A stretch of DNA of 64,000 nucleotides from Octopus vulgaris. Taxonomy: Eukaryota. The position numbers were made by a program, and so were the translations under genes. Location: NCBI GenBank assembly GCA_951406725.2, contig OX597821.1:11904001-11968000 (forward strand), given 5' to 3'. Below, in pieces: positions 2,418-59,819 of this stretch. Each line of letters begins with the position of its first letter. Positions within the stretch are counted from its first letter, which is position 1. Under the pieces are notes generated by a model. It was not told where the DNA came from, ran no database searches, and saw only the letters and a program-made list of their open reading frames with translations.

Positions 2418-3918
2418 TATATGTAAAAGAGAGATTCTGTCTGTTTGTTTCGTTTGTCCCGCAAAACATAAGTGAGACACCATCTCATTTATAAGCGTGG
2501 CTGTTTTGTCCACTTTCACACTTAAACTATGGTGATGATAATGATGATGGCCGTGTAACCAGAGCGAGCTAAAGGGCCAGTTTTCAAAGAATCGACACCT
2601 TTCAATTTCTCTCTCCCTCTCTCCATCCCTCTTTCTCCCTCTCTCTCTCTCCCTCTCTCTCTCCCTGCATCTCTCCCCTCTCTTCCCCTCTCTCCCCTTT
2701 CTCCTTCTCTCTCTCTAATGACTGCCACAGGTAAAAATAAAAATGAAAAAAAGCATTGTGTGGTCAATACGTTCAACTAAAATTTATTCAAGGCGGTGCC
2801 CCAGCATAGCCGCAATCTAATGACTAAATTAAGTAAAAGGTGGAAAAAACACAACGCCTTGTCCTGCATTCCTGTGATATAGCGTCGGAATTTCAGCAAA
2901 AACCCTGACACCATTCAGCATTTGCAAATTGATTTCACTATCACTTACTGATATTCACACATTATTTGTACATTCACTTCACTCCAGTTTACTTTATATT
3001 CCTTATGAAAAAATTTCTCATTCCCATAAGCTATTCTTCTATGTAATATAGGTGCAGGAGTGGCTGTGTGGTAAGTAGCGTGCATACCAACCACACGGTT
3101 CCGGGTTCAGTCCCACTGCGTGGCACCTTGGGTAAGTGTCTTCTACTATAGCCCCGGTCCGACCAAAGCATTCTGAGTGGATTTGGTAGACGGAAACTGA
3201 AAGAAGCCTGTCGTATATATGTATATATATATATATATGTATGTGTGTGTATATGTTTGTGTGTTTGTGTATGTTTGTGTGTCTGTGTTTTTTTCCCCCA
3301 ACATCGCTTGACAACCGATGCTGGTGTGTTTACGTCCCCGTAACTTAGCCGCTCGGCAAAAGAAAGAGATATAATAAGTACTAGGCTTACAAAGAATAAG
3401 TCCTTGGGTCGATTTGCTCGACTAAAGGCGGTGCTCCAGCATGGCCGCAGTCAAATGACGGAAACAAGTAAAAGAGTAAAAGTGCATATACTTATTTTCC
3501 TTGCATTACTGTAACATAGCGTCCGGATTTTATTTCATTATTACTTACTGATTTTTAATATAAAAAAATGTCACCTAAAAAAATGCAGTCACAAAACGAA
3601 CAGCAAACAAACGCACGACGTGCACCAGAAAACGACGACGAGGCACACTCACAACTTGCAGATCAGTAACAGAGAAAGAAAGCTCGACATGTATCTGAAA
3701 CCGAACATCAAGGAAATGCTAGAGAAATAAAATAATACAAAACTTACTTACTATTATCATATCATAAACAAACACAAGTTCATGTACGATATTCATCTTT
3801 CTTCTACTTTCAAATATTACAGATTTCTTTTCTAAAAATGCACTCGTGCATGTTCAATATGGCTCCTGATAAGCAGTAAAAATAGTTATCTGATCAGCGA
3901 CAGGTTTTACTACAAGTA
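2418..3918 (+). mobile_element. Possible degenerate Helitron, interrupted by SINEs
   Basis: About 3617-3723 translates RRAPENDDEAHSQLADQ*QRKKARHVSETEHQGNAR, resembling STPR-type repeats of RepHel N-termini; Helitron-like start near 2418; degenerate direct repeat 2858/3496; no clean CTAG end. Confidence 0.3.
3051..3482 (+). mobile_element. tRNA-derived SINE family A, full length
   Basis: A-box-like gtggctgtgtggtaag, B-box-like gggttcagtccc, internal (TA)n/(TG)n, gtaaaaga tail; homologous to copies at 41.2, 50.0 and 58.5 kb. Confidence 0.92.
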
Positions 3919-7932: not shown

Positions 7933-7935
<3 letters not shown>

Positions 7936-8241
7936 ACATAAGGGACTAAAGCCATCTGAATATGGCTAGGGACAGGGCAGGGTGGTGGGGGTGTTACTGT
8001 TGCATTTTAGCCCCAGGCGAACATCAACGTCGCCAGATAGGTTTGACACCATCACGGTGTCCTTTATCCTGCAAAGGACACCGTGATGGTGTCAAGCCTA
8101 TCTGGCGACGTTGATGTTCGCCTGGGGCTAAATGCAACAGTAACACCCCCACCACCCTGCCCTGTCCCTAGCCATATTCAGATGGCTTTAGTCCCTTATG
8201 TTATGGAGCAGTTACTGTCTATATCTCATTTAGAGAATTAT

Positions 8242-11490: not shown

Positions 11491-11725
11491 TTGGCGGCGA
11501 TCTGGCAGAATCGTTAGCACGCCGGGCGAAATGCCTAGCCGTATTTCATCTGCCGTTACATTCTGACTTCAAATTCCGCCGAGGTTGACTTTGCCTTTCA
11601 TCCTTTCGGGGGTCGATAAATTAAGTACCAGTTGCGCACTAGGGGTCGATGTAATCGACTTAATCCGTTTGTCTGTCCTTGTTTGTCCCCTCTATGTTTA
11701 GCCCCTTATGGGTAGTAAAGAAATA
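11491..11725 (+). mobile_element. tRNA-derived SINE family B
   Basis: 15-bp TSD ggtacttacttcagt at 11476-11490 and 11726-11740; homologous to copies at 12.3, 32.1, 48.0 and 48.7 kb. Confidence 0.93.
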
Positions 11726-12268
11726 GGTACTTACTTCAGTGACTCTGAAGTCATGTATGACGAAGTCAACCTCAGCACGATGTGGGCTGATGAAGTCCAA
11801 ATTCATCAGTCCATGTTGTGTTTCGTCGACACTGTTATGTCCTTCTTTGAACTTTATATGCAACCTAATAATGTGGACATTTAACAAGGTTACAACGATA
11901 CAAATATAAATCAGAAACAATACGTAACAAACAATATCTCTTCTCAACGACTTTTACAACTGTCTTCACAAAGCGCCTGCGCACACCACACTGTTCCTCA
12001 CTGACATTTATACGGTTTAGGACAGTTGACTTGCTATCTCACATGAGTGTCATGATTTCACCACAACAGTACGGGTTCTCTTAATGGAGTGCGGGAAAAC
12101 AGGTAAAGCATGTTGTCCACCGCACTAAAGAGTCTTGACCAAAGAATCATTATGATAATCCTTTATAATTTAGGCGCAAGGTCAGCAATATCAGACGTTG
12201 TGCGTTAGTCGATACCATCAACTTTATTTCATCGACACTAAAAGGATAAAAAAACCGAGTTGAACACA

Positions 12269-12506
12269 TATTTCCTTACTGCCAACAAGGGGCTACACAC
12301 AGAGGGGACAAACAAGGTGAGACAAACGGATTAAGTCAATTATACCGACCCCCAATACGTAACCGGTACTTATTTAATCGACCACGAAAGGATGAAAGGT
12401 GAAGTCGACCTTGGCGGAATTTGAACTCAGAACGTGGCAGACGAAATACCGCTAAGCATTTCGCCTGGCCTGCTAACGTGTCTGCCAGCTCGCCGCCTTT
12501 CAACTT
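12269..12506 (-). mobile_element. SINE family B
   Basis: 11-bp TSD agttgaacaca at 12258-12268 and 12507-12517. Confidence 0.92.
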
Positions 12507-30380: not shown

Positions 30381-31171
30381 TATATGTGTGTGTGTTTGGA
30401 AACGGATATGAGTGATATGAAGATGAGAGAACGGCGAAGAGACTTTTTTGCGTATAGGATTATTTGTAGTGATTCAGTACAATTTCCTACTAATAGGTGG
30501 AGGCAGGTTAAAATTCCAGATTTTGATTTCAATATCATCTATTTATTTCGAAGTTACCGAGTAGAACGACCCTACATGTGAATATCAACTGTTTCTACAC
30601 GAGTTGTCAACGGTCTAGGCTAGATATTTCTATAGTAAGTCTGAGTTAACCTACGCATGCAACTCTCCCCTATCCACGAAACCAATGCTTATCCAAGGGA
30701 TAGCCACTGACTTGGGGTGGTAGATATTGGTATCAGTAGCGACTTAGGTGTGTTGCAGTCAGAACAGATCCCTCAAATAGACTTACTCTATCTAGCTTCT
30801 AATATTTCTTATTACATATCGACCTGATTTAGAATTTTTATCGATCACGACGAGATGAAAGAAATAGTGACCCCGGTGGGAATTTGGTATATCATACAGT
30901 GAGTCGTAACAATAAAGTGTGTCACAGTTTTTCAAACTCAGTAAGATAGAAACCACCGAATATGTTTTCGGAAATAGTCGTAAAAAGATAGTTTTGTTGT
31001 TATTGTTGATATTGTTCTTGTTTTGCCTGGCCTAGCTTAAACTACATCTAGCTCCCGTATGATGTAGAAGTGGTCAGCCAAATGACAAGGTATGTCAATC
31101 AGATCTATGTTTCCTATTATACCAGCTTGCTCTAAACCTAAGAACCATATTGAGCAAACACATTCAGTAAT

Positions 31172-31592
31172 TAGAAATATTGAATTACTAAATGTCTCGA
31201 AGAGACATGAGCGGTGGTGGAGCGATAGAGTGGTTGTATACTGTCAACATAACGTGACAGTCCAGTAAAGGGAATCACACCACCGCTGTTTAGCCCTAGG
31301 AATCTTCGACGCTTCCTGTCGGCTTTGACACATTTCCTGTGTCTTTATATTTGCGAAGGGGTGGCAATCACCCCCATCAGCTAGGATTCACACCTGAAGA
31401 CATGCATGTTTCTGGATCTTACCCGTCATCAGGTGTGAATCCTAGCTGGTGGAGGTGCTTGCCTCCCCTTCACAAATATAAGAACACAGGAAATGTGTCA
31501 AAGCCGACAGGAAGCGTCGATGATTCCTAGGGCTAAACAGCGGTGGTGTGATTCCCTTTACTGGACTGTCCCGTTATGTTGACAGTATACAA
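31172..31592. mobile_element. Hairpin insertion with 12-bp TSD and an HHR core at the apex
   Basis: Arms 31234-31401 and 31425-31592; TSD acattcagtaat at 31160-31171 and 31593-31604. Confidence 0.9.
31399..31432 (-). ncRNA. Hammerhead core, native stem I incomplete
   Basis: CTGATGA-C-GGG-TAAGA-TCC-A-GAAA-CATGCATG-TC. Confidence 0.78.
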
Positions 31593-32067
31593 ACATTCAG
31601 TAATGTTTGCTAGATGACTTTGATTTGTTACACTCACCATACTATGATCAATATTAGCATGTCTGTAGATTCTGTTTCTCAATAGAACGTCATAGGTTGT
31701 AGCTTAGTTCCTTCTAATGAGGTGGAGGAGTATTGGGGAAACAAATTCATATAGAATAAACCAAAGAAATGGGAAGGAAGGTTTCACGCTAATATATTGA
31801 GAGTCTTTGTTTCTAAAAATATAGGGAGTTTATGATTCCAAACTTCATGTGAGAGAGCAGAGTATCCTTGTTTAACGGTTTATTTTATTATAATTTTATT
31901 GTTTTTGGTTAGTAAATGTTATTTCCTATTGGCTTCTAGAAAGCAGGGAAAATGGCAACTATTCTCTTAAAAATTTGCTTTTGTGCCTAGAGATAATGTT
32001 TTCAAAATGACTTATTTTGTATTACATTTCAGGAACATCTAGCTCTAACGTGCTGAAGCAGAAATAC

Positions 32068-32254
32068 TGATTTCTTAACTACCCACAAGGGGCTAAACAT
32101 AGAGGGGACAAACAAGGACAGACAAACGGATTAAGTCGATTATATCGACCCCAGTGCGTAACTGGAACTTATTTAACCGACCCCGAAAGGATGAAAGGCA
32201 AAGTCGACCTCGGCGGAATTTGAACTCAGAATGTAACGGCAGACGAAATACCGC
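32068..32254 (-). mobile_element. SINE family B, 5'-truncated
   Basis: TSD gaagcagaaatac at 32055-32067 and 32255-32267. Confidence 0.9.
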
Positions 32255-32708
32255 GAAGCAGAAATACCGTTATAGCAAATATCTCGTTCCATAGAATTTT
32301 CTCTTCCTGAATTTAGATAAATAAAATTATTCAAACATGCAAACACTATCAGACATTTCAATCGAGATAGAATCATATGATTTTGAAACCCAGACTCTTA
32401 ACCACTCTACAACGTTCACATGCCAATGTATAGGCATAAATATGTGTGTGAATATACTGTGTTTGTGTGTGTATGCATGTGTGTGCTGCTGTATGCGTCT
32501 AGCTTTGCTTTTCGATATAGACCCACATACACACACGCACACACACAAGGACACGCAGGCTAATGCACACACACACGCACTCTTTTTCTTTCACTCACAC
32601 ACTCTTTCTCTCACTCACACACACACGAACTCCTCTCTCACACACATACCCAGAAACACAAACGTATATTTGGAAATGTGAAATGTGAAATATTGATTGC
32701 AGAATAGC

Positions 32709-41178: not shown

Positions 41179-41584
41179 TCTTTTATCTTTTATCTTTTAC
41201 TTGTTTCAGTCATTTGACTGCGGCCATGCTGGAGCACCGCCTTTAGTCGAGCAAATCGACGCCGGGACTTATTCTTTGTAAGCCCAGTACTTATTCTATC
41301 GGGCTCTTTTTGCCGAACCGCTAAGTGACGGGGACGTAAACACACCAGCATCGGTTGTCAAGCAATGCTAGGGGGACAAACACAGACACACAAACACACA
41401 CATACATATATATATATACATATATACGACAGGCTTCTTTCAGTTTCTGCCTACCAAATCCACTCACAAGGCATTGGTCGGCCCGGGGCTATAGCAGAAG
41501 ACACTTACCCAAGATGTCACGCAGTGGGACTGAACCCGGAACCATGTGGTTGGTTAGCAAGCTACTTACCACACAGCCACTCCT
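41179..41584 (-). mobile_element. SINE family A
   Basis: Reverse complement of 3051-3482, with a (TAAAAGA)n tail. Confidence 0.93.
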
Positions 41585-43147: not shown

Positions 43148-43197
43148 AATATATATATATATATATTACATACACACATATATATATATATATATAT

Positions 43198-43542
43198 AAA
43201 ATAAATATAAGAGAGTGTTCACTATATTGATCACTCTAGCACCAGTTAATCCAAGAGGTTTCAACCACGAAAAATACATGTTTCCCATGAAAGCCGGTAC
43301 GACTGTTAGCTAACAGTCGTACCGGCTTTCATGGGAAACATGTATTTTTCGTGGTTGAAACCTCTTGGATTAACTGGTGCTAGAGTGATCAATATAGTGA
43401 ACACTCTCTTATATTTATTTTGTGAAAATATTATAATATGTTATAAAATATTATAATAATCCAGGTTTCTCGTAGCACTAGGCCACTTGGTGTGGAATAA
43501 ATATACTATTAAATTAGTATCTAATTCTCTCACCCTTATTAA

Positions 43543-45395: not shown

Positions 45396-45445
<50 letters not shown>

Positions 45446-45488
45446 AAAGAATGGAGCTGAGCAAGATTTAACAAAATTCCTTTATTTT

Positions 45489-45574
45489 ATTTTCGACATA
45501 TGTTTCGAAGTCTGCAAAATTCCTAATTCTGAATGAATAAGGAGTCCATTATGCAGGTTTGTCTTCAGGAAAAT
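45489..45574 (-). ncRNA. Hammerhead motif, stem II base mutated
   Basis: ATTTTC-CTGAAGA-CAAAC...CTTC-GAAA-CATATG-TC-GAAAAT. Confidence 0.7.
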
Positions 45575-45676
45575 CCAGGAACTTCTTTCGCCAACAAAAT
45601 CATTATCGCTATGGGCTCCTCGAGAGCAGTCATCTAAAAACTTGTTGTGCATTTTGTTGGCGAAAGAAGTTCCTGG

Positions 45677-45762
45677 ATTTTCCTGAAGAGAAAGCTGCAT
45701 AATGGACTCCTTATCCATTCGGAATTAGGAATTTTGCCGACTTCGAAACATATGTCGAAAAT
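45677..45762 (+). ncRNA. Type I hammerhead ribozyme motif
   Basis: ATTTTC-CTGAAGA-GAA...TTC-GAAA-CATATG-TC-GAAAAT; all core residues present. Confidence 0.87.
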
Positions 45763-45969
45763 AAAATAAAGGAATTTTGTTAAATCTTTGCTCAGCTCCA
45801 TTCTTTCCTATACTTATTATATTAAATTAAACTTCAAATTTCCGCAATAAGGCACGGAGTATATGCCCTATGGTCGTAACTTCAACCATGTTCTTTCTGT
45901 TGTGAGTTTGCTACCCAGGTATCGGTTATCTTTCGAATTATCCGTAATAAGATAATTCGGTTATCTACT

Positions 45970-47979: not shown

Positions 47980-48221
47980 AAGGCGGCAAACTGGCAGAAA
48001 CGTTAGCACGCCGGGCGAAATACTTAGCGGTATTTTGTCTGCAGCTACGTTCTGAGTTCAAATTCCGCCGAGGTCGACTTTGCCTTTCATCCTTTCGGGG
48101 TCGATTAAATAAGTACCATTTTACGCACTGGGGTCGATATAATATAATCGACTTAATCCATGTGTTTGTCTTTGCTTGTCCTCTCTGTGTTTAGCCGTTT
48201 GCGGGTAGTAAAGAAATAGGT
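47980..48221 (+). mobile_element. SINE family B
   Basis: Homology to 11491-11725. Confidence 0.92.
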
Positions 48222-48489
48222 ATCGGTGACAGGATATGATTTCATAAGTTTAGGCTTACAAGTTATCAACGTACTCACTGATTAGAAGAAATGTCTACCC
48301 TAAGTTTGTAAAAGACGAATGATAATGCAGCCAGTGGTACTTGTGTTGCAATCTTGGTCGTAAATTAAATGACACACTGCGATATATTATAATATACTTC
48401 TTCATACTCTTTCCCCACATATAATGCTTTCAAGTGTATGTAAATATTAGCAAACTAACAGTTGTTGTTTTATAGGCGTCGAAAGTGTG

Positions 48490-49070
48490 TTGTAAGATAC
48501 AAATAAGATGATAATGTATTTTCGAACGCGGAAACGCCGTGAGAAGAGCAGAAATACTGGGCAAATGACCCTTACAAACCGGAAAAAAATATTGTCAACA
48601 CAGAGCCATGGGTATTGAAAACACATTTCTTGAAGACTCCGCCCAAGTCCTTTACTGTTAATCTAAATGTCTCGCCAAATATACAACTACGTGCATATAA
48701 ATATAATTATATATACTATTTCTTTACTACCCACAAGGGGCTAAACACAGAGGGGGACGAACAAGGACAGAGAAACAGATTAAGTCGATTATATCGACCC
48801 CAGTGCGTAACTGGTACTTATTTAATCGACCCCGAAAGGATGAAAGGCAAAGTCGACCTCGGCGGACGGAATTGTACATTGAGCTTAATAGCGTCTGAAA
48901 TTGCGGATTAATTTGCAGCACTTGGCCGGAGGATTCAAGCGATGTAGGTTCGAGTCAGTCTCATGACGGTTTGTCGACAATTTTTTCCCGCTTTGTAAGT
49001 GTAATTTACCCACTATTTCGGCTGTTCTCTACGATCGAAAATAAATTATCATCTTGTTTGTATCTTACAA
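48490..49070. mobile_element. Inverted-repeat (MITE-like) element with a tRNA-like interior
   Basis: Termini ttgtaagatacaaataagatgataat / attatcatcttgtttgtatcttacaa; arms of about 110-130 bp; B-box-like ggttcgagtc near 48947. Confidence 0.65.
48716..48866 (-). mobile_element. SINE family B, 5'-truncated and nested
   Basis: Homology to the 32.1 kb copy. Confidence 0.88.
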
Positions 49071-49250: not shown

Positions 49251-50012
49251 ATATTACTGTTTCATGTTATGTATGTAAATAAAAAAGGAAATGATGAAAG
49301 AAAAGTATTATTCACTGATATATTACAAAATATAAAGAATTAAGTAAAGAGAACATTTATGTGAGGAACATGTTCATAATTTAGAAATGGATGAATGAAG
49401 TTTCAGATTTAAAAAGATTAGTGTTTATAGCTGAATATAGAGAAAGAGCTTCAGCAGGAAATACAGACTGAGAGAGAAACATAAAAGTAGGAGATACGGT
49501 TCCAGACAATTATATAAAAGAGCCAGAAATTTAAAAAAAAATGGAGACAAATAGTGAGAAGGTTCGATAGATATATATACTGCGAACGGTGATACAGGGA
49601 AAGCAAAATAACTGAGCCAAAAATGTAAGACAAAACTGAAATAGATATATGAAGGAATTCACAGACACACAGGCGCATGCATCTGTTTAAGTTTTTTTCT
49701 TTTCTACCGGAAACGGAAGTTGATTCGGCCAAGCAAATCAGAAATCAAACATAGTACGTGAAAGAGGAAACACGAACAGTCAATATTTCGTCAGTTGTAC
49801 ACTAGATATATAACTGTATATATTAGATATAGTACACTTTTACGTGATCCTGGTTAATGGGATATTTTTGTACTTTGCTCAAAGCATGACATTGCGCGCA
49901 TATAGATAGTGTATATTAACATACAAACGCACATACACACACACAAGCTGAGATATATATCTATGTACGTGTATTCATATATGCGTGTATATAAAATATA
50001 TATATATATATA

Positions 50013-50410
50013 GGCGCAGCAGTGGCTATGTGGTAAGTAGTTTGCTTACCAACCCCATGGTTCCGGGTTCAGTACCACTGCGTGATACCTTGGGCAAGTG
50101 TCTTCAACTATAACCTCGGGCCGACCGAAGCCTTGTGAGAGGATTTGGTAGACGGAAACTGAAAGACGCCCGTCGTATATATGTATATATATGTGTATGT
50201 GTGTGTATGTTTATTTGTCTGTGTTTGTTTCACCAACACCGCTTGACAACCGATGCTGGTCTGTTTACGTTCCCTTAACTTAGCAGTTCGGTAAAAGAGA
50301 GCGATAGAATAAGTACTAGGCTTCCAAAGAATTAGTCTTAGGGTCGATTTGATCGACTAAAGGCGGTGCTACAGCATGGCCGCAGTAAAACAATTAAAAG
50401 AGTAAAAGAG
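50013..50410 (+). mobile_element. SINE family A
   Basis: Homology to 3051-3482. Confidence 0.93.
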
Positions 50411-50740
50411 TATATATATATATACATACATATATGCATACACACACATATATGTACGAGAACATCAATAGATACATTTATTTGCACAAAGCCTCTCCAC
50501 CCCAGATCAAAAAATTTACTTATACAATCCGTTGAGATTGCAAAATGATTAGCACGACGGGCAAATACCTAGTGGTATTTCTTTCAGTCTGTTGTCCTGG
50601 GCTCAAAATACACCATTTTCGATTTTAATCTCTCACTAATTTTGAGCACTGTGATCCACAAAATGAAAGATCTTGTACCTATATCAGAAAAAAGAATATA
50701 TATATATATACATACAAAGTTTTTGAGATGCTAAAAGAAA

Positions 50741-55869: not shown

Positions 55870-56017
55870 CATGCACATATATATGTATCTATGTGTAAGT
55901 TTGCGTGTATGTGTGTGTATGTTTATGTTCGTCGCTGTGTGTGCATAAGTATATATAAATATACACGTCTACACCCACACACACTTATATATATATATGT
56001 ATATAGACATATCTATA

Positions 56018-56067
<50 letters not shown>

Positions 56068-56069
<2 letters not shown>

Positions 56070-56744
56070 TTCAGCAAAAATTTAGATTCAAATGAATATG
56101 GTACTTAATTTAGATGCACAAGAATTCTGTATGGTGTTATCCATATAAATCCGTGGGGTGATTATAATCAAAATAAGCGACAAGAATGACTCCGGTAATT
56201 TGGTACGACCGTTTCGTACTACATCATTTTATTAAATGTTATAAGTATTACAACAGTTTTAAAATGCTGAGCACTCAGCAGCCGATTTTAGTGGTTTCCC
56301 ATTGATACAAAAATTTTCATATCAAGTGGCAACATTATAGAGAAGGTAGATATAGAGACAAAGATGTGGATTTAAATTTTAAGAACATTTGAGGTAGTGG
56401 AGCACATCAACTGACTGACTAAGATTCTGTTGTTCCAGAATACTTTAAGGTTCTGAGAGAATCTTATAGTAGTCTGGATCAACTGAGTCTTAGTCAGTCA
56501 GCTGATGGGCTCCACTACCCCAAACGTTCTTAAAATTTAAATCCACATCTTTCTCTATATATCTACCTTCTCTATAATGTTGCCACTTGATATGAAAATT
56601 TTTGTATTAAGGGAAAACCTCTATAATCGGCTGCTGAGTGCTCAGCATTTTAAAACTGTAGTAATACTTATAACATTTAATAAAATGATGTAGTACGAAA
56701 CGATCGTACCAAATTACCGGAGTCATTCTTGTTGCTCATTTTGA
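56068..56744. mobile_element. Hairpin insertion with 287-bp arms and HHR-like motifs, in (TA)n
   Basis: Arms 56168-56454 and 56458-56744, 3-nt loop, scattered mismatches; left arm extends to (TA)n near 56068. Confidence 0.9.
56625..56715 (+). ncRNA. Variant hammerhead motif (mirror copy at 56197-56287, minus)
   Basis: GG-CTGCTGA-GTGCT...AGTAC-GAAA-CGATCG-TA-CC; long stem II; A6C in both arms; weak stem I. Confidence 0.62.
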
Positions 56745-56849
56745 ATATATATATATATATATCCGAAGACTAAAAGTTTATTTTTTTATATATGCTAAGC
56801 CACTTGTTTTAATTTATTAATATCGATATCTACCTTCATTATTTAATTT

Positions 56850-56916
<67 letters not shown>

Positions 56917-56919
<3 letters not shown>

Positions 56920-58519: not shown

Positions 58520-58643
58520 TGCCCGGGTTCTGTCCCACTGCGTGGTACATTGGACAAGTGTCCTCTACCATAGCTTCGGGCCGACCAAAGCCTTGTTAAT
58601 GGATTTGGTAGACGGAAACTGAAAGAAGCCCGTCGTATATATG

Positions 58644-58711
<68 letters not shown>

Positions 58712-58902
58712 TGTGTGTGTTTGGCCCAACATGACAACCGATGCTGGTGTTTTTACGTCCCCGTAACTTAGCGGTTCGGCAAAATGAGGCCGACAGAATA
58801 AGTACCAGGCTTACAAAGAATAAGTTCTAGGGTCAATTTGCTTGACTAAAGGCAGTGCTCCAGCATGACCGCTGTCAAATGACTGAAACAAGTAAAAGAG
58901 TA
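58520..58902 (+). mobile_element. SINE family A, 5'-truncated
   Basis: Homology to 3051-3482. Confidence 0.9.
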
Positions 58903-59819
58903 AGTTATTTGGGTTAATACCTAAGTTTCTGTAGCGATTATGTCCACTTTAACACAAAACTTTATTTTATAGGAAGTTTCCAAATCGTCTTCAGGTCTCT
59001 CCTGAATTCTGCAAACTAGTCAGCTGTCACAAGGAGTGATACTAGAATGTGGTGAAATCGTTGTTACTGTCGGGTTCCTTTGAATTTGCAGTAAAAATGT
59101 TAGCAGGCTAGCTTCTTAGATGTATATTATTTACTAAAATTACAATAATCTGGTTATAACTACCTCTCCTAATAATGTGTCAACCTTCTGAAATCCATTT
59201 CGCGTATATGTTTGTGTACATATGTGTTTTGTAGGTAATATGGTCATTGCAAACAAGGATTTACAAGGTGTTTTGACCATGATTCAGTCATGTAATACAG
59301 CTGCAATGTAAGCAAATACGCATTGCATGGTAAGTGATATAAAAGAAAGAAATAGAGCAAAATGTGATGTAAGGAAAACACGAAACAAATGCTACAGAAG
59401 AACTAGAATAGAGAAAATGAAAACCGAAAAGATATTAGACATTGTTATCTCTTCGTTTTGTATCGTTATTTTCTGAACACAATAGTGAATAAAAAAAAAT
59501 CAATGAATATATAATTACAACTGTAAACAATTGTACAAATAGCAATGGTGAAAGATATCAAGTTATCTATGAATAATGGTTAAATATTCATACATCAGGG
59601 TCACACGTAAGTAATATAATGAATTGAAGAAAATTAGTTCATTGCGATAGTGGGTGCATTAAGTAGGCAAATTGCGCTAGTAATGCTTAAAACATGAAAA
59701 TACCAACCAAGTTGAATAAATCAATTTCGATAAGTTAACCAACTAAAAGGAAAAAAGAAAAATGGTTAGCCTCGGTAGATGATTGGAAATTGTTGTCGTT
59801 AATTTCAACTAGCCTCAAC

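Follow-up and report, generated by a model that had tools for sequence, protein, structure and literature searches.

The window (the whole analysed stretch of DNA, 64,000 nucleotides of Octopus vulgaris contig OX597821.1) contains a hairpin insert that is likely a single head-to-head insertion of a 352-nt, hammerhead-bearing repeat. The insertion was probably made by separate cDNAs, one primed by each of the two nicked target strands and both then joined at a 4-nt match. By its sequence, the insert is assigned to a Penelope-pLTR/retrozyme-like family, and the hairpin is real but ordinary, as its layout was found in about half of the sampled copies.

The insert is approximately 430 bases long and has a 12-base target duplication at its borders. 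A previous sequence-only reading of the window had described the hairpin correctly. Its arms (31228-31401 and 31425-31598) are identical at 162 of 174 positions and are separated by a 23-nt loop holding stem II, GAAA and stem III. The 12-bp target site duplication (TSD, ACATTCAGTAAT) was recovered around the hairpin in two copies (31160-31171 and 31593-31604), and the claim that both arms arose in one event is supported. That reading made no mention of the tail of 56 nt (31172-31227), which lies unpaired inside the TSD at one side only, and the outermost 6 nt of the right hairpin "arm" are in fact TSD. The apex of 66 nt is predicted to fold into a single long stem (fold z -8.35). Read on the minus strand, 31172-31432 is native sequence of the family. 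The stretch 31433-31592 (plus strand) is an inverted copy of downstream family sequence. The features are as follows, with family positions numbered so that +1 is the base directly after GTC:

31153..31160, plus strand: left arm of an 8-bp inverted repeat of the empty site, the partner being the last TSD base plus 31605-31611
31160..31171, plus strand: left TSD copy, its last 5 nt also equal to element +227..+231 (target-template microhomology at the tail end)
31172..31432, minus strand: long arm, native family sequence from CTGA (-34) via the hammerhead to +226, bearing the tail
31172..31227, minus strand: one-sided tail, about +171..+226, between the two fixed 3′ ends of the family and unpaired in the hairpin
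31399..31432, minus strand: minimal type I hammerhead core (CTGATGA, stem II, GAAA, palindromic stem III, GTC)
31429..31432, no strand: head-to-head junction, exact 4-nt microhomology CTGA within the 7/8 match of CTGATGAC and GTCTTCAG
31433..31592, plus strand: short inverted arm, family +6..+164 (from +2 if the microhomology is counted), ending near the second fixed end
31593..31604, plus strand: right TSD copy, its first 6 nt matching element +165..+170 at 4 of 6 positions

Both flank junctions of the insert were spanned by contigs from three runs with different organism labels, so the insert ends are not peculiar to the assembly of OX597821.1. Among the contigs listed, none was demonstrated to span the apex, and no joint skipping the insert (empty allele) was present among 15 listed of 23 joints from four runs, such contigs showing presence and not absence. 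Four more long self-complementary stretches were found in the window (7933-8204, 43176-43441, 45429-45822 and 55997-56919; 81-96% identity), all unrelated to the hammerhead family by blastn. Additionally, two dispersed repeat families are present in the window, one at 32064-32260, 11493-11732, 12266-12503, 47982-48222 and 48713-48866, and the other at 3046-3490, 41186-41584, 50008-50416 and 58523-58903.

In the host genome (2.8 Gb), the arm has 2609 candidate relatives, and exact matches to the hammerhead core and the tail number 166 and 293, respectively. For the family analysis, 200 loci were sampled, comprising the best arm relatives, the first 100 listed places each for core and tail matches, and a few others; the sample is hence biased towards well-preserved copies on the first contigs. 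Family sequence was present in 198 of the 200 loci, and 215 segment chains were resolved into 184 distinct insertions including that of the window. The non-coding unit has a length of 352 nt, and 72 of the 184 insertions read through past the tail end into the TATATATA stretch and the upstream part of the hammerhead, which implies a circularly permuted or tandem arrangement of the unit. The outer ends form clusters at two fixed sites, about +170-173 and +226-230, while outer ends called at +178 mostly represent (TC)n flank and were hence not counted as a third site. A non-simple TSD was found in 31 of 96 head-to-head insertions, 26 of these with 11-13 bp (null 3/600), and the 12-bp TSD of the window is the family norm. 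In 82 of 183 cases, an end lies no more than 20 nt from (TA)4. One insertion was found with identical flanks at two places on contig C29 (L008 and L010) and again inside L010, indicating a duplicated host segment.

Elements with GIY-YIG domains and open frames of 781 aa exist in the genome, yet among 25 such loci none matched the 352-nt unit beyond two hits of 17-19 nt within 1.5 kb. In one of these retroelement families (L231, L236 and L243), which looks young, 781-aa open frames are numerous, and RT motifs as well as a cysteine-rich linker are present; the 3′ region of L231 carries several TGATGACGTC repeats, the canonical hammerhead pattern being absent there. Flanks common to copies, seen in six groups, belong to a long family variant and contain no RT. 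This variant (387 candidates, of which 40 were scored) carries a cargo of about 1.6 kb between the TATA stretch and the hammerhead (L101:1560-3200 and L213-L224, e.g., L217:1673-2839 on the minus strand). The cargo frame, 389 aa from stop to stop in L217, contains a CX2CX4HX4C knuckle (Pfam zf-CCHC below the cut-off), and a Pfam search of it returned no RT; we take the cargo to resemble a LINE ORF1-type gene carried between pLTR-like repeats.

The hammerhead was identified on the minus strand in the order CTGATGA (31432-31426), stem II (31425-31413), GAAA (31412-31409), palindromic stem III and GTC, with a predicted cut at 31399/31398, and the closing octamers CTGATGAC and GTCTTCAG are complementary at 7 of 8 positions, as had been noted before. 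At the family level, a CUGANGA plus GAAA core with a UH cleavage triplet is present in 113 distinct cores. The bases after GTC are TTCAGG in 48 and CTCAGG in 55 of these, and a check against the family consensus, which the sequence-only reading had proposed, hence returned TTCAGG as native. The native bases before CTGA are CCTGG[A/G], replaced by CACAC in the window copy only. At pair 2.1/1.1 of stem I, 49 of the 113 cores have A-T and 56 have G-C, a covariation that tracks two subfamilies and may thus reflect a single event. Stem I is present at the family level, and the window copy is without its native 5′ strand, the inverted copy of downstream sequence (31433-31592) standing in its place. 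As the predicted fold of the hairpin additionally sequesters the core, the window copy is probably inactive and dead. Scanning the window with Rfam gave 167 matches at an E-value of up to 1; the 150 that were listed are microRNA models on TA/CA repeats and hairpins, with no hammerhead family and no match at the locus among them.

Head-to-head junctions were found in 97 of the 184 insertions, the window included, and in 72 of 112 insertions with the tail pattern; one arm ends at each fixed site in 70 of the 97. The sequence-only reading had placed weight on the apex falling exactly on the ribozyme core and had itself counted random apex positions against that idea. Arm 5′ ends are scattered across the whole unit, and both ends lie in the ribozyme zone (-40 to +8) in 2 of 58 simple two-arm insertions compared to 1.2 expected. 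The core is not a preferred apex, and a special role for it is unsupported. The exact window junction occurs once in the genome, and a search for a recurrent apex with a 17-nt junction pattern gave 3 matches, two of which (L032 and L033) are unrelated sequence. The unit holds 28 overlapping pairs of 8-mers with at least 7/8 complementarity, CTGATGAC/GTCTTCAG being one of them. Because CTGA/TCAG pairing exists in every family member, the position of the apex is likely a by-product, i.e., the window apex likely lands on the core only because this spot has a short built-in match. The earlier proposal of a join by microhomology is supported, at CTGA: microhomology of at least 2 nt was found at 37 of the 97 junctions (16% by chance) and of at least 4 nt at 8 (2% by chance). 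Blunt joins or additional bases occur at 47 of the 97 junctions, as in end joining.

Starting from the observed family with its native hammerhead, two outer ends, TSDs, scattered junctions, and microhomology at outer ends and junctions, we infer the starts and stops of two cDNAs, the pairing of their 3′ ends and the fill-in by repair as follows. The enzyme of a Penelope-like element (PLE) would nick both target strands 12 bp apart, and each nick would prime its own cDNA. The first cDNA would start at the tail end, pass through the ribozyme and reach CTGA, and the second would start at the second fixed site and halt at about +2. Their 3′ ends would then pair at CTGA/TCAG, and repair would complete the remainder. 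L1 twin priming is similar in that both target strands prime and an inverted 5′ part is joined by microhomology; the octopus family differs from it by a fixed second priming site and by arm overlaps that reach hundreds of bases.

Several family-level results favour two priming events. Fold-back of a single target-primed cDNA requires that one arm is nested in the other, and for the 58 simple two-arm insertions this was impossible in 34 (in 30 by >20 nt), possible via the previous tandem unit in 2, and directly possible in 22. The 5′ ends of the two arms show no correlation in position (rho -0.10, p 0.47). In L025, L174 and L185, the two arms are unlike each other at linked subfamily sites, which points to two templates. 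The overlap with the TSD measures 2.1-2.2 nt at both outer ends compared to 0.8-0.95 nt after shuffling (n = 23 each), as expected if target DNA primed both. An anole PLE protein, a predicted dimer, cuts and extends both strands in vitro, and two internal start sites define the tail (PMC11167929).

The window insertion itself counts against priming at both ends in so far as its geometry is among the 22 of 58 compatible with fold-back. Its arms have three rare alleles in common, and its long arm is matched no more closely by any of 53 other short arms; likewise, arms within one insertion diverge by 7.0% compared to 10.2% between insertions, share rare alleles four times as often as arms of different insertions, and differ at three or more non-CpG polymorphic positions in only 3 of 41 cases. 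Near-symmetric junctions are enriched (21 of 58 within 40 nt compared to 12.8 in shuffled data, P 0.006). The short arm halts at +164, at the lower edge of the second-site cluster, and exact microhomology is missing at that end. Nor was an autonomous partner recovered among the 25 GIY-YIG loci. In favour of two priming events, on the other hand, another three minor alleles are common to the long arms of the window and of L039 and missing from the window short arm, and a 24-mer with two of them occurs genome-wide only in the window and L039. This sharing (L039:1256-1470 and window 31344-31377) connects distant loci and concerns tail-bearing arms only; template switching or gene conversion is a possible source. 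The mosaic history that such alleles suggest for the window arms leaves the mechanism undecided.

Fold-back of a single cDNA, which the sequence-only reading had offered, is the strongest rival, and we consider it the less likely account of the window insertion. A tail-primed cDNA would have reached CTGA, folded onto its own CTGAAGAC and been copied back, with an endonuclease resolving the product at the second site. The window fits this in its short arm nested within the long arm, in TTCAGG being native after GTC, in the exact 4-nt junction match (a length reached by few junctions, as given above), and in the three rare alleles common to both arms, as does the family in its excess of near-symmetric junctions; self-priming from junction palindromes was moreover proposed in PMC3846280. 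However, fold-back needs an extra step to account for the stop at a second fixed site, so that the end of the short arm is left unexplained, and it fails family-wide: of 58 sister insertions that share the outer ends, 34 cannot have arisen in this way. Two geometrically compatible sisters (L025 and L185) have arms from different subfamilies, and the three alleles linking the long arms of the window and L039 would have to be due to chance recurrence or conversion. A variant proposed for rotifer Penelopes, in which a self-primed hairpin would arise ahead of integration, is compatible with the nesting test.

A second rival is that ribozyme cleavage determined where the short arm ends: its cDNA would have run out of template at +1, the 5′ end of a cleaved RNA, before being joined to the other cDNA at CTGA. 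Counting microhomology, the short arm reaches +2, and three further arms stop at +1 to +3 (L026, L197 and L171). Of 77 arms at risk, 9 stop at +1 to +10, about twice the mean rate of 5.4% (uncorrected P 0.02). Similar rates, however, are seen in three others of the 29 bins of 10 nt. Stops at the cut site itself (+1 to +3) are not in significant excess among these 77 arms (P 0.13), and about 68 of them continue past +1. The anole PLE, moreover, inserts in vitro without the need for cleavage (PMC11167929). We hence regard a ribozyme-cut end of the short arm as very improbable, and there is an equally slim chance that cleavage sets some cDNA ends in the family, possibly including that of the window copy. 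The other route in the sequence-only reading, self-priming of the hammerhead-generated 3′ end (GUC) on CUGAUGAC, is refuted and its probability close to nil: although GTC could pair with GAC of CTGATGAC, sequence upstream of the core would have been duplicated, whereas the duplicated arm is downstream of the cut (+2 to +164), the bases after GTC are native with GTGTG in 0 of 113 cores, and hammerhead cleavage leaves a 2′,3′-cyclic phosphate, which cannot prime unless repaired.

The reconstructed empty site was confirmed to be a small hairpin, with a stem of 8 bp and a loop of 10 nt (-6.3 kcal/mol). An inverted repeat of 7 bp was present at 5 of 32 other empty sites compared to 1.25 by base shuffle (P 0.007), although 2 of these 5 are TA runs, which a base shuffle destroys; within the window, such a repeat occurs in 65 of 2597 stretches. 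There was no enrichment of mirror symmetry around the TSD (P 0.15). A target hairpin as determinant of insertion is thus a weak hint.

An inverted 5′-truncated pLTR with a one-sided tail and a short TSD is the known layout of EN+ PLE insertions (Arkhipova et al. 2013, PMC3846280; Craig et al. 2021, PMC8557442), and all three were found here (inverted truncated repeat in 97/184 insertions, one-end tail at 70/97 junctions, short TSD). Common to both are head-to-head pieces, a repeat that contains a hammerhead and a TATATATA stretch, a microsatellite bias, and the mobilisation of units without an ORF as well as of cargo lying between repeats. The described insertions differ in a tail of 30-40 nt (about 55 nt here) and in a TSD of 8-10 bp in the rotifer examples (11-13 bp here), and no RT or GIY-YIG ORF was seen attached to the octopus unit in the loci analysed. 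Minimal hammerheads whose helix III is small and palindromic are also known from pLTRs, and some of them form pairs on opposite strands (PMC4209133). With Poseidon of Anolis carolinensis in vitro (Frangieh et al. 2024, PMC11167929), the family shares AT-rich targets and a tail defined by two fixed start sites, which lie downstream of the hammerhead. No homology of the target to the start site was reported there, in contrast to the overlap of about 2 nt at both ends here, and the available text leaves the inverted structure unexplained. The 352-nt unit also resembles metazoan non-LTR retrozymes (Cervera and de la Pena 2020, PMC7229834; Li et al. 2026, bioRxiv 10.64898/2026.07.22.740005), being non-coding and bearing a type I hammerhead, and the read-through past the tail end given above points in the same direction. 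Unlike these, the octopus family occurs mostly as sub-unit pieces, and the window copy is a broken inverted insertion. Two same-strand cores were found in only 2 of 324 segments (L038 and L049, the window copy not among them), and for this reason the family is provisionally filed as one that works in the manner of a pLTR-derived unit rather than as an established retrozyme.

By itself, the window locus is of little weight, as one dead copy of a described insertion layout. The formation of inverted PLE insertions was termed undefined in PMC8557442, and self-priming was proposed in PMC3846280. In a search conducted mostly at title and abstract level, with subscription papers largely outside it, no published case for two-ended PLE priming on such grounds was found. 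The family statistics weigh more than the locus, since 34 of 58 insertions exclude target-primed fold-back and a few have arms from different subfamilies. Tentatively, and at somewhat below even chances, the family may be a genomic read-out of inverted PLE insertion, in which a dimeric RT-endonuclease primes at both nicks from two fixed RNA sites, sometimes on two RNAs, and the cDNAs are end-joined. If true, this reading would displace the published self-priming proposal.
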